From a virus (taxonomy: Duplodnaviria; Caudoviricetes): a stretch of DNA of 64,000 bases. Below, piece after piece: positions 28,621-60,975 of this stretch (position 1 is the first letter of the stretch; each line of letters opens with the position of its first letter). The notes beneath the pieces are model-generated. The model saw nothing but the letters and a program-made list of their open reading frames with translations, was not told the origin of the DNA and ran no database searches. Location of the stretch: the IMG/VR virus record IMGVR_UViG_3300033076_000691, positions 1-64,000 of that record; one strand, given 5' to 3'. Made by a program: the position numbers and the translations under genes.

Positions 28621-28645
28621 AAGTTTAATAAACTTGTTAAGTTTA
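28621..28645. promoter_or_regulatory. Palindromic site TAAACTT-N3-AAGTTTA (copy 1, with an extra half-site)
   Basis: taaactt-gtt-aagttta at 28629-28645, plus aagttta at 28621-28627. The same palindrome occurs at 36192-36208. Confidence 0.5.
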
Positions 28646-31600
28646 CATGATGAATGGTGTCCATGTATCAATATAAATAAAACCACCATCTGCATATACA
28701 GGTCCACCATCTTTACTCATCCCAGGATACATTGTATTTACCATACTTCCTTGAGCTTGTGCTGTAGTTGTATTACCAGATAACTTAGCAGCATTGATAG
28801 CATTTCTTGCACACTCATCTGGATTTGATGCACCAGATGCTTTACATTTTTCTCTTTGTGCAAAGTAATCACTTTGTGTTCCTGTGGTTGTACCAGTAAC
28901 AGTTTTTTCAGTAGGTCTAAAATCCATTCTACCACCTACTCCTGGAGCAACTGCATAGTTAGGGAACATCTGATTTAGTGCATCAGTCTTCCATCTATTA
29001 GTAATAGCATTAGTATAGTAGTTTCTAACATTGTTTCTCATTGCTAACTTAGCATTATCAAACTGTTGGTTAGCAACTGTATTTTGATCATATACTCTTT
29101 GTGCTGTTGCTTGTTTCAACATACTCTCTTGGTTTCTAATATCATTTGCTTTCATTTCAAATTGATTAGCAATGTTGACATTAGCATTGTTATATCTACC
29201 TAATATGTCTGCAGCATTTTTAGCAGCTTGACCTTGAATACTTGCTGATCTTGAAGACAATGCTTGAGGACCTGCAAACTGTGCCATACCTTGAGTTTGT
29301 ATATTTGCTTGTTCTGCATTAGCAGCAAGTTCTCTGGTAGGGTCAATAAAGGTAGGTCTTGGTACTCCAAGTTCAACAGGAGCTGCCCATGGCATTCTTT
29401 TCTTAAGACCCATTAGATCTCCAAATGCACCAGTAGTTTTAATAGTATCTTGTAACCACCATTCAGAAGGAGGACCTGGTATATCAATACTACTATCTTC
29501 TTTACATGGAGGACAGTTACCGTTTTGATCAGCAGTCATTTCTATTACTGTACCATCTGATTTTTGACAAGGACATTTTTTAGGTTCAGTTGGTTCACAT
29601 GTACAATTTCCTTGAGCATCTTTTGGTTTATAATTAGGTTTACTTTGATCTTCACATTGACACGGTTCTTCACCAGGGACATCTTCAAATTTCAATCCAT
29701 GATGAGCTTGTTTTTCATCTTGTGTTGTATTTGTATAGTATGCATCAATAGGAGAGATGTTAGTAATTGCTTGACCCGTTTCATCATTATATCCAGTTTG
29801 TTTACCATAAGGATTAAATCCAGCAAAACTTGTAATACCTAGTAATGCTAATTGTGTGTCTTCATCATATTTACCAGGATTAGCATCAAGATCTTTCATT
29901 AATCTATCTGCAGCAATAAATCCAGCTTGTTGGATATATGCTTCTTCATCATAAGGACTAGCAGCTCTACCACTTCCTGTAGCTCTTTTCATTGGTAAAC
30001 CCATATCATCAGAAACTTTTTCTAATGATGTGTATCCGCTACTTTTAATTTTATTATACATTGCCTGTATATCGGCATCAGAAAGATTTGGATTAGCATC
30101 TTTTACAACATCTTTAAAACCTCTTCTATCTCCTTTTGCATCACCAGAACTATCAAAATTTCTTAAGTCACCATTACCATCTTTATACATCCAAGATCCA
30201 AATGCAGGAATACCTAACTTATCTTTATAAGTTGTAGTCTTTAAATTCCTTTCTTGCATTCTTAGATAATTTTTTACAATTTCATCGTCTGTAAGTGTAG
30301 AAGGATCTTTACCAAATTGAGCTTGATATGTAGTAGAATATTTACCACTTTTACCTTTATATGCTTGTTGATCTGCTAAAGTTGCTCTTACTTGATTTGC
30401 AAATGCAGCTTTAGCTTTTGGATCATTAAAGGTTTGTGACATTGCTTCAAATGTTGCAGCAGCTACCACATTACCGTTCCATTTATCTAGATCAGTACCT
30501 GAGTATTTATCATGACCTGTAGCAGTAACTTTTTGTTCTACCTTTTTACCATCAGGTTGGATTACATATATTTTTTGTTTACCTCTTCCTGATTGCACAT
30601 AAGCTCTTCTTAATGCATTTTGATATTCTTCTTCAGTTTTATAGTCTGCACGTTTAACTATAATACCATCATCTGCTTTAACTAATGGGAACATAGGACT
30701 AGATGCCGGAATTCTTTTTGTTCTACCTTGATAGTTATTAGAATTAGCACCCATTGCCATACCATATTCTGCTTCTGGTAAGTCATAGAAAGGCATATCA
30801 TAACCACCCATAGACATACCATATTGTGCCATAGGAGGTGCAGGTTGTTCCTGACCACCTTGTGCTTGACCCATTGCTTGTTGTACTAATCCAGCAGCCT
30901 CTTCTTGAGATGCACCTAGTTGTGTAAAGATTTGTACAATAGCTTCTGGAGGTAATCCATTCTGCAACAGACTCATTACAACTTCTTGTGGTTGTGCACC
31001 ATTCTGTAATGCTCCTTGAACTTCTTGAATGATTTCCATCATTTGATCTTGACCACCAGCTTGTGGTTGACCTTGTTGTTGCATCATTGCCATTTCTTCA
31101 GGAGATGGTTGTTGCATACCTTCTTGAGCTCTTCTTAATCTTCTCATACCACCACCATACATCATCATTTCTTCCATGCTTGGTTGTTGAGATGGTTGTG
31201 CAACAGGTTGTCCTTGGTTCATATCTACAGCTTGTTGAAGCTGATCATCACCACCACCTTGTTGTTCTTCCATTTGTTTCTTAAGTTGATCATTAAGAAC
31301 TTTAATTTCTTTACTTGGAAGTATATCTTCTTCTGTCAATCCTCTTGCTTCCATACATGGTTTAGCAACAACAGGAATTCCTTGTGGGAATCCCTTTTTA
31401 GATTCTTGAGCTAATGCAAGACAACCTAACTTAACAACATATTTTTTAATCATTAACTCAGCAGTCTTTCTATCAATCTCATCTGTCTCAGGATCTTCTA
31501 GAATTTTTCTGTATTTCTGAATGTCATATTGTTTTGCAAGTTCAGCAGGAGTATAAGATTTACCTGCACTTTTTCCAAACATAGCAAGTAACTCAGGATC

Positions 31601-31936
31601 TTTTATTTTCATACCTCTAGTATCACTGAAAATAAAAGTATCTTCTGGAAGACTTAATGGAACTCCACCTTGTGCATGTCTTGGTCCTTTGATAATTTGA
31701 TGTTCTGGCATCCCATCACCATTGATGTCTCCATATACTGTTTCTCCACCTTCTGCTTCTAAGTTAGCTTCATCTCTTGGAACAGCAGTAATATATCTAC
31801 TTTCTCTAAGTTTAGGTTGACCAATGTATGCATTGTAATCTGCACCACCCATTGCTGGTACATCATTTACTAAAGCACCTTGTACTTGATACCCTGTTCT
31901 AGCTTTAGGAATTTTTTTAATTCTAACTTTTATCAT
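28643..31936 (-). CDS. Putative cargo/internal virion protein (1097 aa)
   Basis: N-terminal domain with NLEAEGGETV, GPRHAQGGV and FIFSD motifs recalled from crAss-like cargo proteins. Q/M-rich region, A/Q/N-rich coiled C-terminal half, several AxxG/xxGG motifs. Confidence 0.6.
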   Translation of the reverse strand: MIKVRIKKIPKARTGYQVQGALVNDVPAMGGADYNAYIGQPKLRESRYITAVPRDEANLEAEGGETVYGDINGDGMPEHQIIKGPRHAQGGVPLSLPEDTFIFSDTRGMKIKDPELLAMFGKSAGKSYTPAELAKQYDIQKYRKILEDPETDEIDRKTAELMIKKYVVKLGCLALAQESKKGFPQGIPVVAKPCMEARGLTEEDILPSKEIKVLNDQLKKQMEEQQGGGDDQLQQAVDMNQGQPVAQPSQQPSMEEMMMYGGGMRRLRRAQEGMQQPSPEEMAMMQQQGQPQAGGQDQMMEIIQEVQGALQNGAQPQEVVMSLLQNGLPPEAIVQIFTQLGASQEEAAGLVQQAMGQAQGGQEQPAPPMAQYGMSMGGYDMPFYDLPEAEYGMAMGANSNNYQGRTKRIPASSPMFPLVKADDGIIVKRADYKTEEEYQNALRRAYVQSGRGKQKIYVIQPDGKKVEQKVTATGHDKYSGTDLDKWNGNVVAAATFEAMSQTFNDPKAKAAFANQVRATLADQQAYKGKSGKYSTTYQAQFGKDPSTLTDDEIVKNYLRMQERNLKTTTYKDKLGIPAFGSWMYKDGNGDLRNFDSSGDAKGDRRGFKDVVKDANPNLSDADIQAMYNKIKSSGYTSLEKVSDDMGLPMKRATGSGRAASPYDEEAYIQQAGFIAADRLMKDLDANPGKYDEDTQLALLGITSFAGFNPYGKQTGYNDETGQAITNISPIDAYYTNTTQDEKQAHHGLKFEDVPGEEPCQCEDQSKPNYKPKDAQGNCTCEPTEPKKCPCQKSDGTVIEMTADQNGNCPPCKEDSSIDIPGPPSEWWLQDTIKTTGAFGDLMGLKKRMPWAAPVELGVPRPTFIDPTRELAANAEQANIQTQGMAQFAGPQALSSRSASIQGQAAKNAADILGRYNNANVNIANQFEMKANDIRNQESMLKQATAQRVYDQNTVANQQFDNAKLAMRNNVRNYYTNAITNRWKTDALNQMFPNYAVAPGVGGRMDFRPTEKTVTGTTTGTQSDYFAQREKCKASGASNPDECARNAINAAKLSGNTTTAQAQGSMVNTMYPGMSKDGGPVYADGGFIYIDTWTPFIM

Positions 31937-31944
31937 TGGTTCCG

Positions 31945-34900
31945 TTATAAATATTCAACTTGTCCTCCGGCTGCTAAGAATTGTTGTAATTCTTCAGGAG
32001 TCATATATACTTCTTCATCTTCTTCATATGGTGCAGTAAACCCTCCGGCTTGCATATAACCACCATATCTACCGATAGCGTAGTTACCATAGGTAGCTCT
32101 ACTACTTCTATCTTGACCTTGCTCAGGAGTTCTATATCCTATATAACTTCCATAATCTACTTGATCTCCTCTATCTTTTTCAGTAGATGAACCCATTAAA
32201 TTATATACATCTGCTGTATCTAAAAGGAAGTTTTTTTCTTTTTTAGCATTTCGGAATCTATCAATACCACCCAAGATACCTCTTGCTCCTGCATTAAATA
32301 CATTTACACCAGCTTCAGGATCAATAGATCTCATTTTTTTCCTTTTATTTTCTACACCTACATATTGATTTGGTGTAGGTGGTTCTTTTTCAGGAATAAT
32401 CTCTTGACCTTGTGCTCCTAAAGTATGTCCGGTATTTGCTGTTTCTGTATATGATCCAGTACCTGTTGCATTAATATAAGCAAAAGGATTTTGATCTTGA
32501 TTGATTGAAGACCCTCTTGGTGATCCAAACAAAGTATTTTCAAATTGAGCATCAGCAGAATGTGGTCCAAATGCAGACATGTCTTGTCCTATACCATTAC
32601 TAAAACCTGTACCTAATTCAAATGGATTAACTCCACCATAACGGTATTCCATTTGAGGGCCACCATATTGCTTTTGATCTTTTACACGTTTTGTAGATTT
32701 ATCTTCATAGTATCTAGAACCCTGTGCCCCAAATCTTACCTTATCTCTGAAACGTCTTGCATCTTCATTTTCAAAAGCATATGTAGTTCTAGCATGTCTT
32801 TTTTCTGCATTAGATAATTCATCCCAATGTTTCTTATTCCATGCATCTTCTTGAAGCTTTGAATCTATATATTCATTTCTACTTACTCTATCAGGTTTTT
32901 CTGAACGTTGTCTTCTTTCTTTTTCAGGATCTACCATCCCTTTAAGTTGAGCAACATCAATAGGATTGTCTCCTGCAACTTTATAAATGTCTAACCATTC
33001 TTTTTCTTTACCAAGTAAACCTTTTTTAGTAACATATCTTGCAGCAACTTCTGGTGGTAATTGACCCATAAAAGCATTCTTAGTACCTAAGTAATAAGGT
33101 TTACCCATTGGTTGTGCATATGATCCCATGTTAGCCATAATAGGATTCCAAGGTAAGAGTGTATTTGCAATTGAACCTTGACCTCTTACTATTCTAGGAA
33201 CATAGTTCACCTGTGCTACTGGAATACAAGCTTTATATTTTTCATTCCAAATAGTACCCGGACCACATTTTGTTTTAGCAGGAGTTTGTAAAAATGGATT
33301 ATCTACAGGTTTACCATAGTTCATATACTCATCAAGACTTTTATTATAAAAATCTTCATACTGTTTGTACTCTGCTTCTCTTTTAGATTTATTATCTTCA
33401 GAAGTAAAGTCACTATACCAGGTATCATAATCTCCTTCTGGATTTGCAGCTTCATAATCTTCTTGATTTGTTTCACCTGCTAACCAATCTTCATATCCTA
33501 ATTTATCTCCTACTACTCTTTTTTCACCAGCTTGGTTCATAATATTGATACCATATTGTGCTTCAGGTAAACCATAAGGTTCATAGTATTCAGATTCATT
33601 ACCACCATAAATAAATCTAGTGAGTGGATTTTTAGAATCCATGTCAACAAAACCACCAATTTCTGCTTGTGGTTGCATTGACATATCATCAGCTAAGTTT
33701 TCTTTATAACCATTTTGCATCAAAAGATTCATGATCTGTGGGTTATACTTAGCATTATCATAGATTTCTCCAGTAAGAGCTTTATTAGAATTATTTTTAA
33801 GAGTATTCTTAAACATATTCTTTTTATTCTCAATAGTGTTAGTTAAGTCATCTGTTCTTTTACCTTTACCAATAGTTTGTTCTTGACCACCTTCTTGAAA
33901 TCTTGCTGTTACAGCTTTAATAAAGTTAGATTTAGATGTACCACCAAATTTAAAATCATCTGCGGGCATCACAATGTTAACATTAGGATTGTTAACACTA
34001 GAGTCTTTATATCTATAATAGTTATATGTTGATGGATAAATTCCTTTTTGAATTAGGAATTGCATACTATCTGGATAAGTTAAGTCTCTTTGATCAATTT
34101 GTTTATTAAACTCAACTCCTGTAGGATCTAGTGTTCTAATAGGTCCTACATCAGTACCACATGGACAGTTGCCATATTTATCTTTTGGTTGATAATTATT
34201 ACCAGATGGGTCTTCACATTGACATTGATTATACAATGAATCCCATGTTTTATAACCAGCATATCCCAGAGCTCCTGCACCAAGTAAAGTATTACGACCT
34301 ATTCTATACTTATAGTTTAATGCATTATTGATATCATTTGCATATGAACCTTCAGCAGCAGGATTAATTACATTAGGACCTAATGCTGGATTTACATATC
34401 CAAATGTAGGTAATTCAACATTTTGAATATTTTTAGCTTTAGTTCTAAATAACTGATTTAAACCTGTAGTAGCATAAGTTTCTAAACCTCTACCAACTTT
34501 ACCTCTATTACTTAATTGTGCATAAGGTGTAGGTGGTTGTTCAGTAATATATGAATATAAACCTTTTAAAGGAGTATTTTTGGGAATATTTAAACCTCCT
34601 GCAAATGGAAACTCTGTTGTGTGAGGAAATGGTGTTACCTGATCTCTTAAAAGTAAATCACCAAAATTCTGTTTTATACCAGAAAGAGCTGGTGGAGTAA
34701 CAATACTTTTTGATTTTACACCTTGTGAAAGAGGATTACCCATTTGGTCAAATACCATTGGGGCACCTGTTTCAGGATCAATATTATAATAGAATCTATT
34801 TTTAAATGTAAGTTCTTTTGCTTTAGATGATGTAGACCCAAATGGTAATTTTTGATTAGGTCCAAACTTATGTGTTATCTCAAAAAATTTATTTCCAGAA

Positions 34901-36147
34901 TCATCTGTACCACCAATAATTTTAGAGTCAAGTGGATAAACCCCACCAAGTAAACCATCTGTTTCAGCTACTGTATTTAAGTCAGATAATTTAAATGATG
35001 ATGCACCTCTGTCCAATTGATTAATAATCTTAAATACATCATCTTGGTATAATTGCAGTCTATCTACACCTAAACTTCCATCACCACCACCGGTAATACT
35101 ACCATTATAACTAAAGACTCCTGGTTTAGGAGTAACATCCCCATGTAAAACTTTCCAAAGCTCATCTCTGTTTTGAGTAAAAGTTGTCTTTAACTGAGGT
35201 GTAAGTTTAGCTCCAACATAAGGTAACTTAGTCATTGCTTGACCTGTCATTGTTGCTAACGGTACCATCTTACGAATAGTACTCAAGTTAGTCATAGGTG
35301 TCAATGCTTTGGTATAACCAGGACCCTGAGTTAATAAGGGATACTGTTTTAATAATCTTGCAAGTACACCACCATCTTGTGCTTGTGGTAAATATTGCTG
35401 TGGTTGAAATGAATCAGATACTGGTCTATAGTCTCCAATGTAATATGAAAGATCAGGAAATGCTTCTTGATTTTGCATACCTGGAGTAATAGCCATCAAG
35501 TCTTCTAGTGAAAATGGTTTTTTATTTTTAAGATTTCCTGCTGTTCCATACTGATCTATTACATTTTTTTGAGTACTGTCAGCTTGATCATTTATAAATT
35601 CTTCATTTTCACCACCATCTTCCATGTAACCACCGTATCTACCAAATGCTTGTTCTTGTTCATCTTGTTCTGTTTCTAGATGACTAGTATCATTATTGGC
35701 AGCTTCTTCTTGATCATAATAACCCTCACTTGAATTTGCTAATTCTTCATCTTCAGCATCATCAGAAGCTCTTTGTTCTTCTTCATCAATTTGTTGTTGA
35801 GTTTGAGGATTGTTATTAGGAGCTTGTTCTTCTTGTTTTTGTACTGCTGATGGATCAAAATAACCTTCTTCAGAAAGTTGAGTAATAGCAGATTGAATAA
35901 TACTCAATGCTGTTGTTTGATCTAATGCATATGATGTAATCAGTTCATTATAAACTAGATCCGGAGTAATTGAGTTCTTTAAAGAAAGATATGCGTTCTC
36001 ATATATCTTATTTAATCTTGCAGGATCTTTACTTACAGAACCAACTTCCATACCCATCTGAGCTTTCTTTAGAAACTTGGCTGTATTATTATAGTATCCT
36101 GGTGTTTCTCCTGGACCTGCTTTTCTTATTCTAACTGATTTCTTCAT
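31945..36147 (-). CDS. Modular putative cargo protein (1400 aa) with many xxGG motifs
   Basis: Long ORF between muzzle and RNAP block. GRYGGYMxxGG occurs twice, with about 14 motif copies in total. Confidence 0.6.
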   Translation of the reverse strand: MKKSVRIRKAGPGETPGYYNNTAKFLKKAQMGMEVGSVSKDPARLNKIYENAYLSLKNSITPDLVYNELITSYALDQTTALSIIQSAITQLSEEGYFDPSAVQKQEEQAPNNNPQTQQQIDEEEQRASDDAEDEELANSSEGYYDQEEAANNDTSHLETEQDEQEQAFGRYGGYMEDGGENEEFINDQADSTQKNVIDQYGTAGNLKNKKPFSLEDLMAITPGMQNQEAFPDLSYYIGDYRPVSDSFQPQQYLPQAQDGGVLARLLKQYPLLTQGPGYTKALTPMTNLSTIRKMVPLATMTGQAMTKLPYVGAKLTPQLKTTFTQNRDELWKVLHGDVTPKPGVFSYNGSITGGGDGSLGVDRLQLYQDDVFKIINQLDRGASSFKLSDLNTVAETDGLLGGVYPLDSKIIGGTDDSGNKFFEITHKFGPNQKLPFGSTSSKAKELTFKNRFYYNIDPETGAPMVFDQMGNPLSQGVKSKSIVTPPALSGIKQNFGDLLLRDQVTPFPHTTEFPFAGGLNIPKNTPLKGLYSYITEQPPTPYAQLSNRGKVGRGLETYATTGLNQLFRTKAKNIQNVELPTFGYVNPALGPNVINPAAEGSYANDINNALNYKYRIGRNTLLGAGALGYAGYKTWDSLYNQCQCEDPSGNNYQPKDKYGNCPCGTDVGPIRTLDPTGVEFNKQIDQRDLTYPDSMQFLIQKGIYPSTYNYYRYKDSSVNNPNVNIVMPADDFKFGGTSKSNFIKAVTARFQEGGQEQTIGKGKRTDDLTNTIENKKNMFKNTLKNNSNKALTGEIYDNAKYNPQIMNLLMQNGYKENLADDMSMQPQAEIGGFVDMDSKNPLTRFIYGGNESEYYEPYGLPEAQYGINIMNQAGEKRVVGDKLGYEDWLAGETNQEDYEAANPEGDYDTWYSDFTSEDNKSKREAEYKQYEDFYNKSLDEYMNYGKPVDNPFLQTPAKTKCGPGTIWNEKYKACIPVAQVNYVPRIVRGQGSIANTLLPWNPIMANMGSYAQPMGKPYYLGTKNAFMGQLPPEVAARYVTKKGLLGKEKEWLDIYKVAGDNPIDVAQLKGMVDPEKERRQRSEKPDRVSRNEYIDSKLQEDAWNKKHWDELSNAEKRHARTTYAFENEDARRFRDKVRFGAQGSRYYEDKSTKRVKDQKQYGGPQMEYRYGGVNPFELGTGFSNGIGQDMSAFGPHSADAQFENTLFGSPRGSSINQDQNPFAYINATGTGSYTETANTGHTLGAQGQEIIPEKEPPTPNQYVGVENKRKKMRSIDPEAGVNVFNAGARGILGGIDRFRNAKKEKNFLLDTADVYNLMGSSTEKDRGDQVDYGSYIGYRTPEQGQDRSSRATYGNYAIGRYGGYMQAGGFTAPYEEDEEVYMTPEELQQFLAAGGQVEYL

Positions 36148-36160
36148 AACGTATGTTATA

Positions 36161-36180
36161 TACTAAATATACTAAATTTT
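36161..36180 (-). promoter_or_regulatory. Putative phage late-promoter motif (TTTAGTATATT)
   Basis: Minus strand reads aaatttAGTATATTtagta upstream of the ATG at 36147. The same motif occurs at 52041-52055, 54069-54086 and 58161-58178. Confidence 0.55.
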
Positions 36181-36191
36181 AATTTAATCAA

Positions 36192-36208
36192 TAAACTTAT
36201 AAAGTTTA
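36192..36208. promoter_or_regulatory. Palindromic site TAAACTT-N3-AAGTTTA (copy 2)
   Basis: taaactt-ata-aagttta, overlapping the TAA of the upstream gene exactly as copy 1 does. Confidence 0.5.
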
Positions 36209-39200
36209 TTCATCCTCAACTATATAACCATCTTTAACATACTGGTCTATTTCTTTTTGAGTAAGTTCTAATGCTACTCCTCCATTTTTATGAAGCATAT
36301 AGAAATGTTTATGTAACTGTGTAGCATGTCCTTTTTTAGTCAGATCATCCCATCTCTTTCGTCCTTCTTGAGTATGCATTCCACTTGAAACTAATGGATT
36401 TAAACCTACTTGCTGTAATGAATTTGTTATAGCTTTATTAAACTCACCTGATACTCCAGTACCCATTAGGTTAAATCTATCAGATAAACCAAATGGATAA
36501 TCTCTTTCTTTCATAAATATGAGTTGATCTTCTAATGTAGGAATACCATGTTGTCCTTTATCAAATCTTGTTATACCAATATCTCCCGTCAAATTATTAC
36601 CAACATAAGTAGACATATCTAATCTAAGTAACGGGTTTCCTGATAAATCAAATGAAGATTCTGTTACAGGATTAATTTTAACTTTTAATTGATCGTCAAT
36701 TTTTTTAATACCTAATCCTTTAGCAAGGTTTTCATTAACTAAAGACTCAAACTCTGGAACAGTAACTCTAAGTCCTGGAGATTCCATTAAGTAAATGGCT
36801 GGTTTTGCAGCCTTAGTAAGTTTAGTTCCTGCTTTAACAATTTGTCCAAGACTAGCCTTTTGTAATATTCCACCTTTTTCTTTTATTTGAGTAGAATTTT
36901 TTTGCCAAGGATTAGTTAATAATTCCTCAGCTTTACTGTAAACTTTTTTAACAGGTTCTTCAACATATTCATCAAGATACTCTTGAGGTGCGGTCATACC
37001 CATACCAGCAAGAGCAGCAGCATAAGCAGCAGCATATCCATATCTTTCTAAAAGACTTTGAAGATTACCCCCCATGGTTGCAGGATCAAATTGATCATTT
37101 CTAAGGGCTTCCATATTAACAGGAATATACCTATTAGAAAATGGCAGTCTTCTGTGAAAAGATAAACCAGGATCTGATATAGGAATGCTAGGTTTTATAC
37201 CACCTTGATTATCAGTAATTAAAACTCCATTTCTTTTTGATAAACTTCTATAACCTAAATTAGTTCCCGGAGCCTTAGTATCTAAACGTACCCCAAATAC
37301 TCCCGGATAACTTTCATTTGGATTACCTGGTTCTGCCCAATTTCCTTCTTTTTTAATTTGAGATTTACCCATTCTTAATAAAGGGCCATGTGAAGGATCT
37401 AATTGACCAGTTAATTTTACATAATCTAAACTATCTCCAAATTTTCTAAATGCAGTATTATCTACATACTCAGATAAATCTTTACCATAGAAAGGAAGAT
37501 AATTTAAAGGACTTCCTATAAATGGTCCTAATCCATCATACCCAGCTCCAAAAGTTAAAATTTTTATAGGGTTCATCATTACAGGAGCTAATGTTTTTGC
37601 TAAACTATTAGCTGTTCCAATAGTTCCAACATTTGCTATTCTTCCTAGATTTTTACCAGTTTTAACAATTTGTCCAAGATTAGCTTTTGGTAAAGTACCA
37701 CCTTTACTATATCCTAACAACTTTCTTGCATCAAGTGCATTTTGAGTTTGTTGAGTTGGCATAGTAAAATCTGAAAAGTTTGTATAATTTGTAGGGACAG
37801 ATTTTATACCTTTTGCAAATCTATATGCTGGAAGTGCACTAAGACCTGCCATTGATGCATCCCAGGCTGCTTCCCCATAATTACCTTTATTAAAAGATTC
37901 TTTTGCATCAGCAAGATTTTGATCTAATCCTAGTAATACACTTGCATCAACAAATGGATTGCCCAACATATTTGAAACAACTGGTTTAACAAATCCAGTA
38001 CCTTTTCCAATAGCATTGAGTCCTTTTATTCCTCCATAAGTAGTACCAATATCCCAAAGTTCATTTCCAAGTGCTTCTGTAAACTTTCCTTCATTATACC
38101 CTTCTCTTAAATTCATTCCAATTTTAAATGGATTAAATGCATTTAGAGTTTGATCTAAAACACCTGTAGGTGTCAATTTTGACATAGTTCCTAAATCAGT
38201 ACCAAATTTATCTTCAGCTTTTAATCTATCATCATAGCTTCTATTCCAATCACCCCACATTTCTTCTCTTGGGTTTAATGCATAATATGCAGAATGAAAT
38301 GGATGTTTTAATACATCTTTTACTTTATCTTCTGTAGTTAGTTCTCTATTTGGATCACCTTGTTTTATCTGTTGACCACTGTGTATAATAGCAGCATTGT
38401 ATATGTCTCCTTGTTGTTCCTGTAATAAATCTTGGTAAGTTTTTTTTGAACCAGAAACCTTTTTTCCTAAAATTGATTGAACAGCTGCATTAGGATCAGT
38501 TTGATATAAGTTGATAAAAGAAGATTTTTCTTTATCATTTAATTCTGAAATAGCTTTTTTAAGAACATCTCTTTGAGCTGGTACAACTAAATTACCTAGG
38601 TATTCTGAAACAGCTTTGTTATAATCTTGGTTTTCTGCTGAAGTTCTTTTAGCTTCTGCATCACGTAGAATAACTGCATCCCTAGACAATTGATTGGCAT
38701 TTCTTTGCATTGCCATTTGATCATCTTGAGAATATCTTATATCAGAATTATCAATATCACCATACTTATCCATCCATTCATTAAATGCTTTTTGACCACG
38801 TTCAATTTTATCAGAATGGTATTTTAAATCTGTTTCTGCAGGGTGATATCTTTTTTCCCAAGCAGCTTGAGGATCATTTGAAAAGAATACATCTTGATCT
38901 TTAGCAAGTTTAGAGTTATCAGTTTGCATACTATCTAAACCTTGAGTAATATTACCCAATGCATCGTTTAATATCTTTTGAGTAGGTTGTATAAATTTTT
39001 TTAACTCAGTTTGATTACCTAAAGAACTAGGTAAAGATTTTACAACTTCTGCCGGAGACTTTCCTTCTTCAAGAGCTTTGGTAATAATTTTATTTGTCAC
39101 CGTAGCATCATACTGTTCTTTTGCAGCATCCATTAAAGAACCTAGTTGTTCTTTAACTTGTTTAGGATCCAGCCCCCAATAGTTTTTAAATTGATCTGCT

Positions 39201-39799
39201 TGATAACCATTATTAACAATCCTATTATATGCAAGATCTAAAGGATATAGTTGTGCAAATCCTGTTTCTGAATTTTTATTAATTAAAAATGTTTTTTTTA
39301 ATTCTTCTTCAGTATCTTTAGTTAAATTAGATAAAGGTATAACATCAAATGGTTCAATTTTATCAGACTTCTTTGAAGCATCAAATGTTTTATAATATCC
39401 ACTAACTTTATTATCATAATTTCTTCTCTGTTCTTCTAATAATTTTTGTTGCCCTTCTTCCCGTATACTTTGCATCTTTTGTTCATGTGCAAGTTTTCTA
39501 TCAGACATTTGTTTTTCAAAACCCTTTTGTTCTTCAGCCCATGCAGCACGTAACTCAGATTCAGTTAAACATTGACCATTATAATCATACTTACCTGGAG
39601 GACATTGTTTACCTGTCATTACAGGAGATTGCATCTCATTCCAATATGAAGGTTGTGCTACATTCTCTACTTCAACCATTGGCTGTTCTTGATCAGTAGA
39701 AGACTCATTGTCTTTTCTACCTTTCATTATTTTTGTAGTCTTATTAAATACACCACCATATCTAGCTTGTGGTATGCTTGTAATTCTATACTTTGCCAT
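36206..39799 (-). CDS. Modular putative cargo protein (1197 aa) with C-terminal GNAT-like module
   Basis: Modules separated by KGG-x-L-x-KA-x-LGQIVK linkers (two copies). The last module has MGTGVSGEF...LVSSGMHTQEGRKRWDDL. Confidence 0.6.
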   Translation of the reverse strand: MAKYRITSIPQARYGGVFNKTTKIMKGRKDNESSTDQEQPMVEVENVAQPSYWNEMQSPVMTGKQCPPGKYDYNGQCLTESELRAAWAEEQKGFEKQMSDRKLAHEQKMQSIREEGQQKLLEEQRRNYDNKVSGYYKTFDASKKSDKIEPFDVIPLSNLTKDTEEELKKTFLINKNSETGFAQLYPLDLAYNRIVNNGYQADQFKNYWGLDPKQVKEQLGSLMDAAKEQYDATVTNKIITKALEEGKSPAEVVKSLPSSLGNQTELKKFIQPTQKILNDALGNITQGLDSMQTDNSKLAKDQDVFFSNDPQAAWEKRYHPAETDLKYHSDKIERGQKAFNEWMDKYGDIDNSDIRYSQDDQMAMQRNANQLSRDAVILRDAEAKRTSAENQDYNKAVSEYLGNLVVPAQRDVLKKAISELNDKEKSSFINLYQTDPNAAVQSILGKKVSGSKKTYQDLLQEQQGDIYNAAIIHSGQQIKQGDPNRELTTEDKVKDVLKHPFHSAYYALNPREEMWGDWNRSYDDRLKAEDKFGTDLGTMSKLTPTGVLDQTLNAFNPFKIGMNLREGYNEGKFTEALGNELWDIGTTYGGIKGLNAIGKGTGFVKPVVSNMLGNPFVDASVLLGLDQNLADAKESFNKGNYGEAAWDASMAGLSALPAYRFAKGIKSVPTNYTNFSDFTMPTQQTQNALDARKLLGYSKGGTLPKANLGQIVKTGKNLGRIANVGTIGTANSLAKTLAPVMMNPIKILTFGAGYDGLGPFIGSPLNYLPFYGKDLSEYVDNTAFRKFGDSLDYVKLTGQLDPSHGPLLRMGKSQIKKEGNWAEPGNPNESYPGVFGVRLDTKAPGTNLGYRSLSKRNGVLITDNQGGIKPSIPISDPGLSFHRRLPFSNRYIPVNMEALRNDQFDPATMGGNLQSLLERYGYAAAYAAALAGMGMTAPQEYLDEYVEEPVKKVYSKAEELLTNPWQKNSTQIKEKGGILQKASLGQIVKAGTKLTKAAKPAIYLMESPGLRVTVPEFESLVNENLAKGLGIKKIDDQLKVKINPVTESSFDLSGNPLLRLDMSTYVGNNLTGDIGITRFDKGQHGIPTLEDQLIFMKERDYPFGLSDRFNLMGTGVSGEFNKAITNSLQQVGLNPLVSSGMHTQEGRKRWDDLTKKGHATQLHKHFYMLHKNGGVALELTQKEIDQYVKDGYIVEDE

Positions 39800-39801
39800 G
39801 G

Positions 39802-42800
39802 TTAGATTTTTTCAAATGTATATCCAAGTTTTTCTAATTCTCTCATAGTAGCTTCATCTACTTCATCTCCTAAAGTATAATCAACATTACCACCTTCTTC
39901 CCAGCTATCTAATGTTTTATATGTTTTAGGATCTACAACAAAGTTGTTTTCAATTAAGAATGGTTTACCACCAACTAATTTTAAAGCTTCTACGTTCTGC
40001 AATGGTTTAAAAAATGAACTTGCTGCAATTTGTTTTGCTGCATCTGTTGGATTTAAATAGGCATGTCCTCTTTTTTCCCAAGGATTAAGATCCCAAATAT
40101 CATTTGTTGTAAATTGTAAACCTTGTGGATGATCATTTATATCCCATCCAAATCCACCCATTACACCAAACTGATCATTATCCCAAACTTTACCTGTTGA
40201 AACACCTGAGAATGGTTGTAAATCATTTAATTTTGCATGTCTTGATCTTACCCATGGATTCCATCCAGCAATTCTCATTGCATCTTGTTGTCTCATCCAA
40301 TCATCAAGCTCTTGTTCATTTCCATAATTTGCTTGTCTTTTTATTCTATAATGCTCTCTAGTTAAATCTTCTAAAGGATTATGTCCAAAAGATAAACCCT
40401 GTTCATATCCTGATGCTCTTAAATCATTATACAAATCATTAAAGTAATCCGGACTATATGCAGTATTTAACATGCGGAACTTATTATCTCCAATTTGTTC
40501 TAATGTACCATATTCTTGTGGTAATCCTAAACCAACTGCCCAAGCATCTAATCTTCTTTGACCAATATCATTTAATTTACTTAAAGTAGACTGATCAAAA
40601 ACTTGCATTCTATCTTTATCAGACATTTTTTTAAACTCCTCTAATGGAATTCTTTTTATTTTTAATAATGTTTCAAGATGTGGTTGATGTCCATACTTTA
40701 AAGACATTCCTACTCTAAACGGTCTAGTTTCATTACTAACAGTATTTTTATATAACTCAGTAGGTAATGCTTTTACTTTATCTAAAATAGCATACCCAGC
40801 TGGATTTATTGATTTATATAATCCAGCTCTTCCTAACTTTCCTAATTCTGATAAACCTACCGGTAATCCATTTGCAGCTTTAGGTAAAAAACCACCATTA
40901 GCATATTGTCTTGTTAATCTATAATTTGGTACTTGTATTTCTTTTAAAGAGCTTCCTGGCACATTAAAGACTCTAGCTTGTTCTGTCATTCCTTTTTGCA
41001 ATAACATATCATTAAGTCTTTTGACCATTTCATCAGCAGTTTCTTGTTTTAATGATCTACCCGTACGAATACCTCTAGGAACTTCTAATCCTTCAAATAA
41101 GTTATGATTTACAGACATATAATTTAAAGGTATATGATTTTCATAAGTCATTTGCCAATCAGGTCTTTTACCCATATTAAGCAACATATTATATGAATCT
41201 AAACTTAAACTATATGGTTCTAGAATAGATGGGTTAGGTTTTGTAAATGCTTGATTCATTAACTGAAATGCTCTTCCAGCTTCAATTGAATTTGGCATCT
41301 TAGCAAGGAAATGAAAAGTATTATCATCTACACCTTTAACTTTTGGATTTGGATACAATGTTAAATAACCTGATTGATCTTTATTATAAATATCAAGAGG
41401 AAATGTTACATTAGCTGGAAAATCTGCAGGAATACTTCCTAAAGTTAATTTAGTTGGAGGTACTCTAGGTATTATTGAAGTTGTTCCTCGTACCCAACCT
41501 GATGGTGAAGGTACTTTAGATACTTTTGAAAGTGCATTACCAGCTTTAGTTATCATTCCATAACTAGCTTTAGTAAGTTCAGGAACAGATATATCTTCAA
41601 TAATGTAACCACCTTTAGCATATTCTTGAATCTCTTCTGGTGTAAGGTCTGCTTCAATATAATCTTCTTCAGTTGGTTTACCTTTTAAATAGTTACGGAT
41701 GTCTTTAGCAGCAGCTCTCATTTCAGGAGAGTCATACTTTCTTTCTATTCTATAATCTTTTCTACCCTTTGAAAACATACCAATACTACCTGGAGCAAGT
41801 TGTGCTCTTAACTGACCATCTATATAATTTTCATCAAATCTATCTCTACTTTGAGTGCTACCATTTTTTACTTGTCCTTCATACTCCCAAGTCATATCCT
41901 CACCTCTTGCATCTCTTACAGCTTTTTCAAAGTTTTGTAAAAGAGGTTGGTAGTTTGGATCATCCCGCATACCATGCATCATATCTAAGAATACATCTCC
42001 TCTATTAGCACCTCTTGGATTATATAAAGCAAGATACGTATTTGGTGATGGATTTGGATAAATATATTCAGGACCATTTTCTTCGATAAGATTATCATAT
42101 CTTATTTCAGGATTACCTTCTGGAAATTGAAATTCTATATCTCCGTAACCCACACTTCTAGCATCATAGTTAGGGTCTTTTACAATACTTAAATTCTCCC
42201 CTTCTGCACCATAGACACCCTGCATACCAGGATATCTTTTCATTAATCTTTTCTTGAACTTATCACCTGATTCACCACCATCTTGAAAATACTGAGAGTT
42301 AGGATCATAAATTTTATTTTTTCTAGATTTAGGTTGTGCAAAAAATGGATGCTCAGCAAGTAATCTATTTGTTGCTTCTAAACTTCTAGAGTATGCACGG
42401 GCATTTTTCTTTTTAGGTAACTTAGGAATACTACCACCTTTTTTAAAGTCTTCTGGTTTTTCTAAATCCGGAATACCTGATAGGTTATAATTAGAAGTAA
42501 GTTCCTCATTTGGTTTTATATCTCGTGTTGCAACCATAACAATATGGTCACCATTATCAACCTCTCTTACATTTGGTTCTTCACTATGATTATAATAACC
42601 TAATACAGTAGATGGGAATGGTGCTTGATATAATTCTCCATTTCTATTAAATACTTTTCTAATATGTGATATTCCAATAGGTTCTCCTGCTCTTATAGGT
42701 TCATTTGTAAACAAACCTTTACCTTGAATCTTAGATGGTTTTACACTTACTTGTTTGTAAATAGGAGTATCAACTCCTTCTTTAGCACTAACAAATTCTT

Positions 42801-44196
42801 TTGGTGATTCACCACCTTCTTTTTTAACAACTCCTCCATCTTTATTTCTTGCACCAGATCTATTCATAAGTTGATTATATGCATCAGATCCAGAAAGTTT
42901 ATTTGATGTTTCTTTTTGCCATCTTTCTAATGCAGAATTACGCAGTTTAATAATAACTTGTTTTCTCCAAGCTTCTAATTGTTCTGGTGTAGCATTATTA
43001 ATATCATCAAGTTTTAGTCCAAGTTGACCACGAAATTCACTAGCAATAAGTTTAGGGTCTCCTGTATACAACGGACTGTTAATATCATATGTATCAATAT
43101 ACTCTTTATATGTTCTTGGTAATGTATCTTCTCCTTTTGTTAAACTACTTAAAGAAGATTTATTAAGCATTTTTTTATTTGTAAAAGTTGGATTGTATAA
43201 GCCTTTATTAATTAATGCTTCAGTTTGCTCTGGTGAAAGTATCTTACTTCTAAAGTTTGGCATATAAACTCCAGGAAATAAATTAGAAAATAATTCATCT
43301 CTACTTGTATCTTGATTAAATGCGTTCCACATAGTCGTAGCTGGGTCTTCTGGATACATTTTATCAAATTGATTCCGAGCATTACGGTAATCAATTTCTT
43401 TTTGAAAAAGATTTATAATTTCTTTATCTGTAAAAAAATCTTCTTTTGACGGCATCCATTGAGGACCTGCTAGTTGGTGTAGAGCATTTTGAGATACTTG
43501 CCAACCAGGACTAAAATTTTTAAATTCATAATCTTTACCTTTAATTAAATTGGGATCATATCCATCAAGTTTACCAGAACCGTATAATGAAGAATATGCA
43601 TTTTTTAATCCTTCTTGTCTCCAATTAGGGTCTGTTTCTAATTGCTGAGTTGCTTCATTTAATATATTATAATCTTGTGGATCAATATAATATGCTTCTA
43701 ATCCTGCAGGTAAATAAGGATCTCCACCAAATCGTATTGGAAAGTAACTATCAATTGCAGGATTAGTTAATAAATTTTTAGTATCTTGAGTCATTATAGG
43801 AAACTTAGCAACAACTTTGGGTGCGGTATTTCCTAGTGTTGACATAATGGGTGGTAATCCCATCATTTTACCGGCTGATCCTGAAAATCTAGTAAGACCT
43901 CCCATTGATTTTTTAACCAATGATTTGTTATTTGTTGGAAATTCATCAACATAATCAGCATCTGGAAAATGATAATCTTGACCAGGATACATCATCCGTG
44001 GTTGACCAACATTTGGTTTTGCCATTACAGGATATGGTACTCCCTGCATGGTAATTGTATTAGAAGGGATACGAGTTATTTCTCCTGGATGTGCCCACTG
44101 ACCATTAGGATCTACAATAATATCTTTCTTAGCAGTTGGAGCTTTTGCATTACCAAGTTTTCTAAGAGCATCAATAAGTACTTTTTTATTATGCAT
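39802..44196 (-). CDS. Modular putative cargo protein (1464 aa) containing a SET-domain methyltransferase module
   Basis: SET signatures SKIQGKGLF, NHSEEPN and ATRDIKPNEELTSNY at ~42481-42760, bounded by KKEGG and FKKGG. Confidence 0.75.
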   Translation of the reverse strand: MHNKKVLIDALRKLGNAKAPTAKKDIIVDPNGQWAHPGEITRIPSNTITMQGVPYPVMAKPNVGQPRMMYPGQDYHFPDADYVDEFPTNNKSLVKKSMGGLTRFSGSAGKMMGLPPIMSTLGNTAPKVVAKFPIMTQDTKNLLTNPAIDSYFPIRFGGDPYLPAGLEAYYIDPQDYNILNEATQQLETDPNWRQEGLKNAYSSLYGSGKLDGYDPNLIKGKDYEFKNFSPGWQVSQNALHQLAGPQWMPSKEDFFTDKEIINLFQKEIDYRNARNQFDKMYPEDPATTMWNAFNQDTSRDELFSNLFPGVYMPNFRSKILSPEQTEALINKGLYNPTFTNKKMLNKSSLSSLTKGEDTLPRTYKEYIDTYDINSPLYTGDPKLIASEFRGQLGLKLDDINNATPEQLEAWRKQVIIKLRNSALERWQKETSNKLSGSDAYNQLMNRSGARNKDGGVVKKEGGESPKEFVSAKEGVDTPIYKQVSVKPSKIQGKGLFTNEPIRAGEPIGISHIRKVFNRNGELYQAPFPSTVLGYYNHSEEPNVREVDNGDHIVMVATRDIKPNEELTSNYNLSGIPDLEKPEDFKKGGSIPKLPKKKNARAYSRSLEATNRLLAEHPFFAQPKSRKNKIYDPNSQYFQDGGESGDKFKKRLMKRYPGMQGVYGAEGENLSIVKDPNYDARSVGYGDIEFQFPEGNPEIRYDNLIEENGPEYIYPNPSPNTYLALYNPRGANRGDVFLDMMHGMRDDPNYQPLLQNFEKAVRDARGEDMTWEYEGQVKNGSTQSRDRFDENYIDGQLRAQLAPGSIGMFSKGRKDYRIERKYDSPEMRAAAKDIRNYLKGKPTEEDYIEADLTPEEIQEYAKGGYIIEDISVPELTKASYGMITKAGNALSKVSKVPSPSGWVRGTTSIIPRVPPTKLTLGSIPADFPANVTFPLDIYNKDQSGYLTLYPNPKVKGVDDNTFHFLAKMPNSIEAGRAFQLMNQAFTKPNPSILEPYSLSLDSYNMLLNMGKRPDWQMTYENHIPLNYMSVNHNLFEGLEVPRGIRTGRSLKQETADEMVKRLNDMLLQKGMTEQARVFNVPGSSLKEIQVPNYRLTRQYANGGFLPKAANGLPVGLSELGKLGRAGLYKSINPAGYAILDKVKALPTELYKNTVSNETRPFRVGMSLKYGHQPHLETLLKIKRIPLEEFKKMSDKDRMQVFDQSTLSKLNDIGQRRLDAWAVGLGLPQEYGTLEQIGDNKFRMLNTAYSPDYFNDLYNDLRASGYEQGLSFGHNPLEDLTREHYRIKRQANYGNEQELDDWMRQQDAMRIAGWNPWVRSRHAKLNDLQPFSGVSTGKVWDNDQFGVMGGFGWDINDHPQGLQFTTNDIWDLNPWEKRGHAYLNPTDAAKQIAASSFFKPLQNVEALKLVGGKPFLIENNFVVDPKTYKTLDSWEEGGNVDYTLGDEVDEATMRELEKLGYTFEKI

Positions 44197-47100
44197 TATC
44201 TAGGGGAATACTGATTTTTACTATTGTTCATTTTAAGAATCATGTTTACATTATCACATTGTTTCTTTCTTAATGATACAAAATTAAGGTAGTGTCTGAA
44301 TTTTTTTCTTTGCATTTCAGGCTTACCATAATTCATATTATTAGGATTCAAAATTCTTGTGAATCCATCAGCTGCAGTAATCCATGTATTCTCACTAGAA
44401 TAATTACCAAGAAGAACAGTAGTTCCTGGAACCAATGGTCCTGTAGGAGGATAGTCTGATCCAATAGGAAACTCATCTCTATTTCTTGTTATATCCCAGA
44501 ATTGATTAAATCTATATTTATTTTCTTCTTTAGAGAAAAGTATATCATATGAAAACTGATTAGTACCAAGCTTTGGATACTGCAGTGATAAATTAACATC
44601 ATTCTTTGGATAAAGATTTAAGTTAAGATATCCAGATACTTGTTCTGAGTTATACACTACAGCTTCATCAAAGTTGTAATCAAGAACTTGGTGTTGATCA
44701 ATACAACTATTTCCATTTCTTCTATAACATTCAAGGATATATTCCATTGATCTAGTAGTCATTACTGACTGTCCAGTCATAATTGGAAACTCTATTTCCC
44801 ATCCTCTTTGTATACCATAGAAGTTACAGAATCCATCACAGATATAATTATGTTTCCAAAGCGTATTATTCTTAGTACTTAAGAAAATATCTTTAGTAGG
44901 AATAAGTAAATCCGGATGCCAGTCATGGAAACTTAACCAGTATTGATTTTTAGGGTCATAACTAATTGTCCATGATGCATCATCAAATAAGAATGGATCA
45001 CCTAACATATAAATGTTATTCTGATTATTATCTAGTATAAAATAATCACCTGACCCATCAGAATTGATTCCTATATATTTTACTCTACCTTTATACTCAT
45101 CTTTTAGATAATAGTCTTTTTTAGCAAAATACAATATAGTACTTGAGCTATCATATGTAGCTTGACATCCAATACCCGAAACCGGATTATCTTGATATGG
45201 GTAATTAGGGAAATCATCTGTCAGCCTGTATGGTAAGTATAAGATAAACCACCATTTCATACCAGCTTGAGAAATTTCCTGTAATCCATCTCCATAAGTA
45301 AAGATACGTCCTTGATTTTGAGACATATAGAAAATACCTACAGGTGTTGAAATAACAGCTAATCTATTTTGTGATGAACCAAACTCATATGATTTGTCTG
45401 CATTTGATACAGCTTGTTGTGGCTGTGAAAACAATCCACCATCTCCAATAGTAATCTTAGTATTTAAATCTGTCTCAAGTGTATCTACACCTTGGAACAT
45501 TAAAGGACTTTCATTTTTAAACGTAATGAATATACCTGATTTATTAATTGACTTTACACCAGATATTTGACCTTTAAACTCCTTATAGTTATTTACAAGA
45601 TAAATAAACCAACTATCTTTTGTTGCTTCAAATTGTTGCGGTAATGAATAGATGATCCTATCAGGATAATACGTATAACATAACTTAGCAATTTCAGGAT
45701 TGTAATATCTTGACTGAATACTTCCTGAAGAAAAATATTGATTGAATAGTTTAGAAACACTTAATGAATAGTCATAGATATATTCACTCAATCTTCCCAT
45801 TACATTAGGATTCATATCAAACATAGCAGGTAGATCTGTATATCTATATGGATCATAGTGTTTACCACCTTCTCGTGTGCTTTGTTTTCTAAAGTCAATA
45901 AGAACTTCAGACTCTACAAAGAAATCTCTAACACCAGAATTAGCTAAATAAAAGTACGCATCTCTTACAGAAAACATACCTTCATAAGCTTTACTAAGAT
46001 TTCCTGTACCAATACCTATACCCTCTTTTTGATCAGTAGCGTAGTTATAATATCTTTGAGTAATATTATTATTATTATAGTCTACATAATAATCTAGATT
46101 ATAGAATGCACCTGGTAAAGCTCCTGATCCAGGAACAGAAGGGCTACTTATACTTACAGCTTCTGATAAAAATGTTACATCATATAAAATGCTATTTACA
46201 TTAAATCTACTTTGAGGTATCATGTTATGTAAATAGTAATTGTATTCAAAGCCGTCCGGTTGACCATATAACCAATCATAGTAGAACATCATGTTGTTCT
46301 TCTCTGTATAACGGTTAATATAGGTATCTCCACCAAATAAAATAGGACTTCTTTGTATTACTGTAAAGTAATAAGTTTTACCATCTTTTGGACATGTCCA
46401 TGAAAGTGGTGGATTAGGTATGTTATAGTTAGCTAGTTGTTGCTCACATGGAGTAATTACAATTTGACTTTCACTTCCTAATTGACCATACTGATTTCTT
46501 ACTCTACCTTTTAATCCACCATAGTGACTTGCAATAGTTAAGCTAAAAGGTTTTGTTTTTTCATTTTCTTTAAAGACGGGTAAGTCTGTATTTAAAAATG
46601 CTGGGTCAGATGTATTTTGTGCAATTGTACCTAAGGTAACCAATGACTTATCCTGAACTCCAGAAGTAATTAAATTAGGTCCAATATTTACTCCATCAGA
46701 ATATATAGGATTATAGTATGGTCCTGACTTTGTTCTTACTGTAACTGCATCAGATCTTTTTAAGTTATTGATACTATAAGAATGATAGTTACCTAAATAG
46801 TCTTGATACTTTGTTACTTCTTGAAGATTGTCTCTTATGTAAAAACTATCTTCAATTCTAAATCTATTAAGATAAGTATTAGATAGTTTAGTCATATTAC
46901 TATAGTACCCATGACTTATTTGCTGTAATGCATACTGTCTATAAGGTGTAATAGTATAAAATAACTTAATTGCAATATCTGCACCTTCAGAAAAGTAATA
47001 TGAAATTTGATTAAATGCACCTAGTGTTCTAGATACAGGATCTAAATATGCAAATGAAGGTAATTCAATAGTCCCTCCAAGAGTTAACTTTGGTATTCCA

Positions 47101-49739: not shown

Positions 49740-49743
49740 AATC

Positions 49744-59858: not shown

Positions 59859-59860
59859 GG

Positions 59861-60283: not shown

Positions 60284-60285
60284 GA

Positions 60286-60717: not shown

Positions 60718-60729
60718 TATATATAAGTT

Positions 60730-60975
60730 TTAACATTTCCATTTTCTCAAAGACTTATTGATCCTTGAGTTAGGATCTTTAGCAGTCTTAGCACTTGTTA
60801 GTTTTTTCTTCATACCTTCCATGCGTGCACAGAAAGATTTCTTTCTAGGCCCACCACCTGGTTGAGGTGGTTTAATGTCATGACCAGCAGCTTTTAAAGA
60901 TGCTCTTCCCTTTGCATTAAGACCACCACTTGGGGACTTACCTTCTTTTCTTTGCCATGCTGGGGTCTTTGCCAT
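60730..60975 (-). CDS. Small basic phage protein (DUF6321-like)
   Basis: GGLNAKGRAS, RKKSFCARM and SRINKSLRKWKC motifs recalled from a widespread small phage protein family. Confidence 0.6.
   Translation of the reverse strand: MAKTPAWQRKEGKSPSGGLNAKGRASLKAAGHDIKPPQPGGGPRKKSFCARMEGMKKKLTSAKTAKDPNSRINKSLRKWKC

Follow-up and report, generated by a model that had tools for sequence, protein, structure and literature searches.

The present analysis concerns a 64,000-nucleotide stretch of DNA (hereafter the window), representing positions 1 to 64,000 of the virus record IMGVR_UViG_3300033076_000691, and within it an array of four consecutive genes, A to D, whose products are joined and bounded by conserved short glycine-containing motifs. 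The IMG/VR record is linear, has a length of 103,767 bp and is 86% complete according to CheckV, the window being its first 64 kb. All four genes lie on the minus strand, as do all their parts for which coordinates are given below, and they directly follow the gene of the crassvirus muzzle protein (44196..49805, minus strand; Pfam crAss_MUZ, E = 2.1e-19), which fixes the position of the array. Gene A (39802..44196; 1464 amino acids (aa)) comes first behind the muzzle gene and shows the strongest modularity within the array. Gene B (36206..39799; 1197 aa) encodes a conserved helical N-terminal domain (residues 60-655) followed by variable modules. Gene C (31945..36147) encodes 1400 aa, and gene D (28643..31936; 1097 aa) is the best conserved one, carrying the N-terminal motif described below and lacking the C-terminal tail. 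The crassvirus major capsid protein gene, likewise recognized by Pfam, is located at 62602-64218; capsid and muzzle genes are part of the same record as A–D, with the muzzle gene adjacent to the array. The assignment to the crAss-like phages is based on these two Pfam matches together with the RNA polymerase motif and the homology to phage crAss001 of a 3384-aa giant protein. The lineage is distant from cultured phages, the nearest named capsid protein (Leptolyngbya phage Lbo-JY46) being 28.6% identical. Comparison with GenBank phages gave no nucleotide match for the region (megablast) and no match for gene D (tblastn), and a scan of IMG/VR with a single protein as query gave no match either. 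An alignment-based scan of IMG/VR led to 23 related loci, and the array A-B-C-D was found in identical order across the related IMG/VR loci.

The initial annotation of the window had listed about 30 copies of one loose motif in the four proteins. The copies are indeed present in the translations; on sequence level, the loose motif is better described as three related conserved elements, namely phi-x-x-G-G, L-P-K-A-Q-x-G(G), and a unit of ~45 residues, and some of the listed copies, e.g., at A 96 and A 1106, show little conservation in the orthologue alignment. The unit starts with G-G and a short strand, continues with a helix of the sequence L-T-x-x-E-I-x-x-Y-x-K-G-G and a Y-I-V-E strand, and closes with (D)-I-S-V-P-x-L-x-K-A-Q-x-G-G. 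An internal copy is found in gene A (residues 846-880; 41557..41661), comprising a strand, the L-T-x-x-E-I-x-x-Y-x-K-G-G helix, a strand Y-I-phi-E, and then I-S-V-P-x-L-x-K-A-x-x-G. Conserved elements are also found at most chain ends. Protein A closes with a G-G motif followed by the C-terminal tail of helix, G-Y and strand (residues 1432-1464; 39805..39903). Protein B opens with a near-invariant N-terminal motif of a basic strand, I-P, and then Q-A-x-x-G-G (residues 1-16; 39752..39799) and closes with G-G and the tail (residues 1170-1197; 36209..36292). Protein C starts with a conserved basic N-terminal motif and K-A-Q-x-G (residues 1-35; 36043..36147) and ends in a double G-G motif followed by the tail (residues 1359-1400; 31948..32073), and protein D starts with a basic N-terminal motif with K-A-x-x-G (residues 1-20; 31877..31936). 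In B, C, and D, G-G lies at a distance of 12-35 residues from the N-terminus, and it is also present on either side of the internal unit. Within the chains, junction 1 of B (residues 697-720; 37640..37711) reads phi-x-K-G-G-x-L-P-K-A-x-x-G-x-I-V and is repeated at junction 2 (residues 973-991; 36827..36883). Residues 732-866 of C (33550..33954) host five motifs with the G-G kept in all aligned orthologues, at a site of insertion in relatives, and residues 257-395 of D (30752..31168) form a Q/M-rich low-complexity linker bearing Y-G-G and A-x-Y-G motifs.

In order to evaluate their frequency, phi-x-x-G-G was counted as [AYFMW]-x-x-G-G and compared with shuffled sequences. In total, 20 copies were found in A–D compared with 7.8 ± 2.9 in the shuffles (z = 4.2), and K-A-x-x-G was found nine times compared with 2.5 ± 1.6 (z = 4.0). 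The suggested enrichment over controls therefore holds for these two elements but not for plain G-G, which at 49 copies is not significantly raised over the 39.4 ± 5.7 predicted from glycine content (p = 0.06). The density of [AYFMW]-x-x-G-G amounts to 3.9 per 1000 aa in A–D (20 in 5,158 aa), ~7 times that of the four neighboring large proteins (5 in 8,888 aa, about 0.6 per 1000), in agreement with the annotated sparseness of the motif in the giants; the rest of the proteome is at 1.1 per 1000 aa. A six-frame scan of the whole genome with strict patterns gave matches almost confined to A–D. Since the motif was defined on the same data, these enrichment tests are post hoc and more weight is given to the evidence from orthologues. 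When 13-14 orthologues were aligned for each gene, the motifs appeared as conservation peaks amid otherwise variable sequence. At 28 of the 49 G-G sites, the G-G is kept in at least half of the aligned orthologues, and the best-kept sites are those with F/Y/M/A at position -3, where G-G is retained in 80-100% of the orthologues. Families A and C show a 4-6 fold enrichment of F/Y at -3 and family B one of 2.5 fold, whereas muzzle and further control proteins encoded at these loci show none. The residue following G-G is often hydrophobic or aromatic. The 70 homologues of gene B (24-90% identical) hardly vary in their first ten residues and in the Q-A-x-x-G-G that comes next, and they share an N-terminal domain of ~660 residues. 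It is followed by a variable set of modules joined by phi-x-x-G-G plus L-P-K-A-Q-x-G(G). The last 28 residues (G-G and tail) are 60-77% identical in homologues sharing just 24-45% elsewhere.

The motifs coincide with the borders of exchangeable modules. Around the SET domain of gene A (residues 493-571; 42484..42720; Pfam SET, E = 4.7e-11; homology block 461-603), one G-G motif ends at residue 462 and the next starts at 584, in line with the annotated bracketing. A conserved block (residues 584-641; 42274..42447) is bounded by phi-x-x-G-G on both sides, with the G-G retained in 80% and 93% of orthologues; among relatives, its position changes irrespective of the SET module. Gene A as a whole shows homology to 14 relatives in shuffled blocks, a mosaic in which the segments 461-603, 584-641, 846-880, 913-1102, and 1101-1436 are each found in differing relatives, at differing positions, or not at all. 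Ends of high-scoring segment pairs (HSPs) pile up at residues 641-643, 880-885, and 1102, representing the last G of three motifs. At residue 1102, all six HSPs at that module end, within a Y-x-x-G-G at the C-terminal edge of an alpha/beta module that is followed by the L-P-K-A element (residues 1098-1110; 40867..40905). Internal HSP ends fall ≤3 residues from a motif G in 16 of 40 cases in family A (1.6 expected) and in 4 of 12 in family C (0.9 expected), the corresponding p-values being optimistic because the subjects are related. In gene B, junctions 1 and 2 form a 59-nucleotide (nt) direct repeat with 80% identical DNA, and exactly the segment between these repeats is missing in the relative P0002. 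In the family at large, the first 100 residues of A directly adjoin the 603-641 block; in the window phage, ~500 residues including SET are inserted between the two, at G-G. Thus, both the proposed construction from unrelated, motif-delimited modules and their expected gain and loss at motifs in orthologous loci agree with the comparative data.

Genes B, C, and D matched no Pfam or PHROGs family, save one sub-threshold FDX-ACB match in D, and a sequence search of the PDB gave only weak SET-type matches for gene A (E ≥ 0.14) and one chance-level match for gene D. A Cys-rich mini-module (C-x-C ... C-x-C) is common to D ~759-781 (29596-29662) and C ~641-663 (34158-34224), also seen as a 67-nt DNA repeat with 73% identity; it could be a small metal-binding knuckle. 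AlphaFold2 models were computed for gene B (60-sequence alignment, mean predicted local distance difference test (pLDDT) of 56) and for A 800-1110. The B model contains a confident helical domain at 60-655, while pLDDT is below 50 for the N-terminal motif, for junctions 697-720 and 973-991, and for the G-G ahead of the tail; the tail is modeled as a helix (1181-1189) plus a strand (1193-1196), and a short strand is found at residues 4-7. In the A model, an alpha/beta module with pLDDT 70-92 extends up to ~1098 and ends ≤2 residues from the Y-x-x-G-G at 1098-1102, beyond which pLDDT drops below 50. Of the internal unit 846-880, the helix alone is modeled, at pLDDT ~55-60, followed by predicted disorder to residue 910. 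Hence all motifs covered by the two models are predicted to lie in linkers or at domain edges, as had been anticipated. Foldseek searches with both models gave no match at E ≤ 0.001.

A further regularity concerns the unit. The internal unit of A corresponds to a B-type C-terminal tail fused to a B-type N-terminal motif; it is whole inside gene A and divided between neighboring genes at A|B, B|C, and C|D. At all A|B, B|C, and C|D junctions in 14 loci, a tail C-terminus (helix, G-(Y/G), x, hydrophobic, E) is paired with a basic N-terminal strand (Met, a few residues, (K/R)-I, then P). Neither tail nor basic N-terminus was observed at the muzzle|A, D|next, and giant|giant junctions of the same 14 loci; congruently, gene A has no basic N-terminus and gene D no tail. 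Scoring of the pairing by regular expressions gave 25/1/15/29 (Fisher p = 1.6e-7), the rows being non-independent and the shorter A-type tail being missed by the expression. The pairing implies that natural stops and starts fall between the acidic strand and I-(S/T)-x-P, away from G-G. Such a regularity would be expected from head-to-tail docking of consecutive proteins, or from binding of both halves to a shared partner.

The 57-residue unit region was converted into a profile and searched against 1.84 billion representative proteins, matching 827 clusters with E ≤ 0.001, of which 415 reach E ≤ 1e-10, usually with 2-4 copies per matched protein. Most of the best 150 unit proteins start like gene A, and ~120 of them carry the tail at the extreme C-terminus. 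G-G is found 4-12 residues upstream of 97% of the C-terminal tails and of 73% of the internal units, with F/Y at -3 in half of the cases, and some stand-alone relatives start with the motif just 3-5 residues past the initiator Met. Pfam domains in 27 unit proteins comprise SET (4), Amidase_2 (3), SLT (2), tail lysozyme (2), and YkuD (2), and furthermore VanY, LysM, phage lysozyme, and ART-PolyVal. Outside the array, small and very basic open reading frames (ORFs) beside the capsid gene (59358..61494, minus strand) carry phi-x-K-G-G and A-Q-x-G-G, one of them ending in a tail-like helix followed by Y-K-K-G-G. They may represent internal head or DNA-associated proteins.

Release of modules by cleavage, as considered in the initial annotation, would call for a maturation protease encoded by the phage, and the corresponding search did not deliver one. 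In the 86%-complete record, searched in six frames for clan CE, no candidate was found for the clan-CE proteases PF00770 (C5) and PF02902 (C48), the C39 peptidase PF03412, the prohead proteases S77 and S78 (PF03420, PF04586), or MPTase-PolyVal (PF18818), negatives that are limited by family matches of any kind covering only part of the proteome. The motif HExxH is absent from A–D. The only candidate protease site found is the HExxH at residues 841-845 (15453..15467, minus strand) of the 3384-aa giant (7833-17987), outside of the array. The surrounding region shows homology to the HExxH-bearing part of crAss001 gp47, and further along the chain (residue 2347) lies the RNA polymerase motif D-F-D-I-D of the crAss001 gp50 type. 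With gp47-like and gp50-like regions in one chain, two separate crAss001 proteins are fused in the window phage. A second giant of 1975 aa (1904-7831) shows LysM at residues 1651-1689 and HExxH at residue 203, which suggests a cell-wall-directed part of the packaged block. None of the HExxH regions matched a Pfam peptidase. Processing of a fused polyprotein by a zincin-like domain of the crAss RNA polymerase block has been suggested as a possibility by Drobysheva et al. (bioRxiv 10.1101/2020.03.07.982082). The virion of crAss001 shows gel bands at 150, 270, and >300 kDa, sizes that agree with uncut giants, and the structure paper (PMC10172136) contains no report of processing.

Several further features were recorded around the array. 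The gene after D (25392-28586; 1064 aa) has an N-terminus conserved between the window phage and locus L023 (15354-18467); lacking both the basic N-terminal motif and the tail, it delimits the array of motif-bearing genes. The spacer between B and C (36148-36205) comprises 57-58 nt of near-identical DNA in 12 related phages, although the flanking proteins are just 25-45% identical; matching spacers sit in loci L001-L016 and L023. It consists of a small hairpin directly after the stop codon followed by an AT-rich promoter-like stretch, and is probably a conserved terminator/promoter or another RNA signal within the cargo operon. Stop-codon read-through from B to C was considered and rejected, since a spacer of 57 or 58 nt, depending on the phage, does not keep both genes consistently in frame. 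Beyond the window, the record contains a 2809-aa ORF with 24% glycine (77562-85991; L025/L026), which may encode a collagen-like fiber or be an artefact of reading frame or genetic code. The region 86000-103767 shows small ORFs only under table 11 and no obvious replication module in a simple ORF list; here, the record may be incomplete or another code may be used in part.

Short conserved peptides at junctions or termini are known from several other systems. Gly-Gly-directed polyprotein processing is performed by the adenovirus protease (adenain) and by pS273R of African swine fever virus, with the consensus (M/I/L)-x-G-G followed by the cut, and double-glycine leader peptides are cut by C39 peptidases. 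With the adenain and pS273R substrates, A–D share the di-glycine and an upstream hydrophobic residue, recurring in several presumably packaged proteins including small basic ones. Unlike in the adenovirus consensus, where it is at -2, the hydrophobic residue in A–D is at -3 from the first G; moreover, no clan-CE protease is detectable in the record, and A–D are known from genes alone. Polymorphic toxins possess pre-toxin junction motifs, e.g., VENN of CdiA or the Rhs core end motif, and some of these seams are proven self-cleavage sites. A–D resemble them in having a short conserved peptide between a constant part and exchangeable modules that coincides with recombinational swapping, but the toxins belong to bacterial secretion systems and have one seam per protein, compared with many in A–D. 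Internal proteins of T4 carry capsid-targeting sequences, and head proteins of giant phages are processed as well, the cut being made by an identifiable prohead protease at (L/I)-x-E or (S/A/G)-x-E. The similarity consists in short terminal peptides common to otherwise unrelated packaged proteins; in contrast, S77 and S78 gave no match here and the motif of A–D is a different one.

The closest relations in terms of concept are the polyvalent proteins, multi-effector chains of phages and conjugative elements that are encoded near structural genes and presumed to accompany the DNA into the host (Iyer, Burroughs, Anand, de Souza, Aravind 2017, PMC5512222), for which processing by zincin-like peptidases has been proposed in the same paper. 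Like these, gene A combines SET with unrelated modules, its relatives contain ART-PolyVal, SET, and cell-wall hydrolases, and structural genes are adjacent. Their frequent, though not obligatory, hub, a zincin-like MPTase, is however absent from A–D, whose joints carry a conserved peptide code and whose unit is divided between consecutive genes; the text of PMC5512222 does not contain the words “linker” or “crAss”. The second relation is given by the cargo proteins C1 (gp45) and C2 (gp46) of crAss001, which have been found in virions, where parts of them could be resolved at the portal and inside the tail barrel (Bayfield et al. 2023, PMC10172136). A–D occupy the same position directly after the muzzle gene and ahead of the RNA polymerase block, in line with the packaged-cargo position assigned to them at the outset. 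On the basis of this synteny alone, A–D are probably packed in the virion. In gp45, F-x-x-G-G is found at 17, 260, and 559, the last two following the virion-resolved segments 214-245 and 425-552. The crAss001 cargo differs in consisting of two smaller proteins without the 45-residue unit, with a basic C-terminus and no detectable sequence similarity: gp45 carries PF25725 (cargo protein 1 family), and A–D gave no match to this family at E ≤ 0.01. In a homologue search with gp45, the best 120 matches are all at least 96% identical. Injected, possibly processed multi-effector proteins are hence an idea already published (PMC5512222; bioRxiv 10.1101/2020.03.07.982082), and the protein kind (polyvalent/cargo) is known. 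As far as we found, the junction code and the split unit are undescribed in the literature searched, which agrees with the initial view of a system not yet described in crAss-like phages.

Our data suggest A–D to be modular cargo or ejection proteins of the polyvalent kind, i.e., strings of independently folding, exchangeable modules, and the modules of their relatives (cell-wall hydrolases, SET, ART-PolyVal) fit with injected polyvalent proteins. Regarding the motifs, we tentatively favor, though short of calling it probable, a function as uncut hinge-plus-handle elements. A–D are probably packaged and ejected before the DNA. Conserved short linear elements in predicted flexible linkers are present at every joint and at most chain ends, with phi-x-x-G-G closing a module and the ~45-residue unit uniting phi-x-x-G-G and L-P-K-A-Q-x-G(G) around a putative amphipathic helix and a short acidic strand. 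Remaining uncut, the elements would serve as hinges and as recognition handles, allowing any module flanked by them to be recruited to the particle with its order kept. In the split unit, the acidic tail of one protein would dock the basic N-terminal strand of the next one, possibly head to tail from A over B and C to D. The data directly show the motif, its conservation, its predicted linker position, and its coincidence with module exchange and with gene fusions or fissions; that the elements serve as handles or in docking and stay uncut is what we infer. A motif placed 3-5 residues after the start Met, as in some relatives, makes little sense as a mere cutting site. Several points weigh against this proposal. 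AlphaFold gives the internal unit no confident mini-domain, its helix alone reaching pLDDT ~55-60. A single rule of cutting after G-G would cover the stand-alone motifs, those flanking the termini, and those of the small basic proteins more economically. In addition, a protease could be missing from an 86%-complete record, and a conserved HExxH region is located next door in the 3384-aa giant. Since crAss001 is distant and without the unit, its uncut bands are weak evidence for the window phage. In an extended and rather speculative form, which we regard as unlikely, the elements would constitute a “cargo code”: phi-x-x-G-G flanks would admit modules to the particle, and the unit, whole or divided between successive proteins, would couple A–D into a head-to-tail train that follows the gene order and leaves through the tail. 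Its members would perhaps be separated only once inside the host, through a packaged zincin-like protease.

Cutting after G-G is also the core of a competing explanation, in which the motifs are maturation sites where a phage protease frees the modules and clips the N-terminal peptide, the tail, and the internal unit. The clipped peptides would have been assembly signals, and the best candidate enzyme would be the HExxH region of the packaged RNA polymerase giant, conserved and common to crAss001 gp47. A minimal conserved core (phi at -3, G, G) in predicted disordered linkers between modules corresponds to this expectation, as do the frequent hydrophobic or aromatic residue after G-G and the G-G flanking the internal unit and the terminal peptides, both near the N-termini of B, C, and D and upstream of almost all tails. 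The motif in small basic proteins by the capsid gene recalls the processed core proteins of other viruses, in crAss001 gp45 the F-x-x-G-G at 260 lies between tail- and capsid-located segments and the one at 559 just after the portal-bound domain, and zincin-like processing has been suggested in the literature for both the crAss RNA polymerase block and polyvalent proteins. However, none of the protease families searched for gave a match, including C5, C48, C39, S77, S78, and MPTase-PolyVal, and the HExxH regions resemble no Pfam peptidase. Natural gene boundaries lie inside the unit and away from G-G, cleavage would also hit the G-G at the center of the unit, and some relatives begin with the motif itself. 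Moreover, the RNA polymerase giants, for which processing is suspected in the literature, are motif-poor, and crAss001 shows full-size virion bands. We therefore consider maturation sites a possible but somewhat unlikely explanation. Uncut elements would also be expected if the motifs were caps and hinges without any partner, an aromatic residue anchoring the module end ahead of a flexible G-G; modules would travel between phages as cassettes together with their flanks, which thus double as recombination seams. The position of motifs exactly at module edges, the shuffled module order among relatives, and the coincidence of motifs with DNA direct repeats, as for the 59-nt pair in B with the module between it deleted in one relative, are readily accommodated. 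Nevertheless, one short motif closes modules of unrelated folds, and the unit and terminal peptides are far more conserved than a hinge requires. The motif is kept in relatives with saturated DNA change (24-45% protein identity), pointing to selection on the peptide, and the partner-less explanation appears improbable. Finally, a mere by-product of glycine-rich low-complexity composition and a loose motif definition would be consistent with plain G-G occurring at the frequency predicted from composition, with the weak preferences over all glycines (A at -3 and -2, Q at -2), and with an unsupervised expectation-maximization motif search that converged on the Q/M-rich tract of gene D. It is contradicted by the site-by-site conservation in orthologues, by a position preference for F/Y that is absent from control proteins, by strict six-frame patterns matching almost only A–D, and by the 415 clusters matched by the unit profile at E ≤ 1e-10; we give it hardly any credence.

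The peptide code at joints and ends offers a sequence signature for cargo genes in uncultured phages, with the unit profile already at 827 clusters. It explains the swapping of effector modules such as cell-wall enzymes, SET, and ADP-ribosyltransferase between phages. If the favored handle function is true, the motif would be usable to load foreign proteins into phage particles. The motif bears on the choice, packing, and ejection of megadaltons of protein cargo by crAss-like phages and makes packaging and ejection experimentally tractable.

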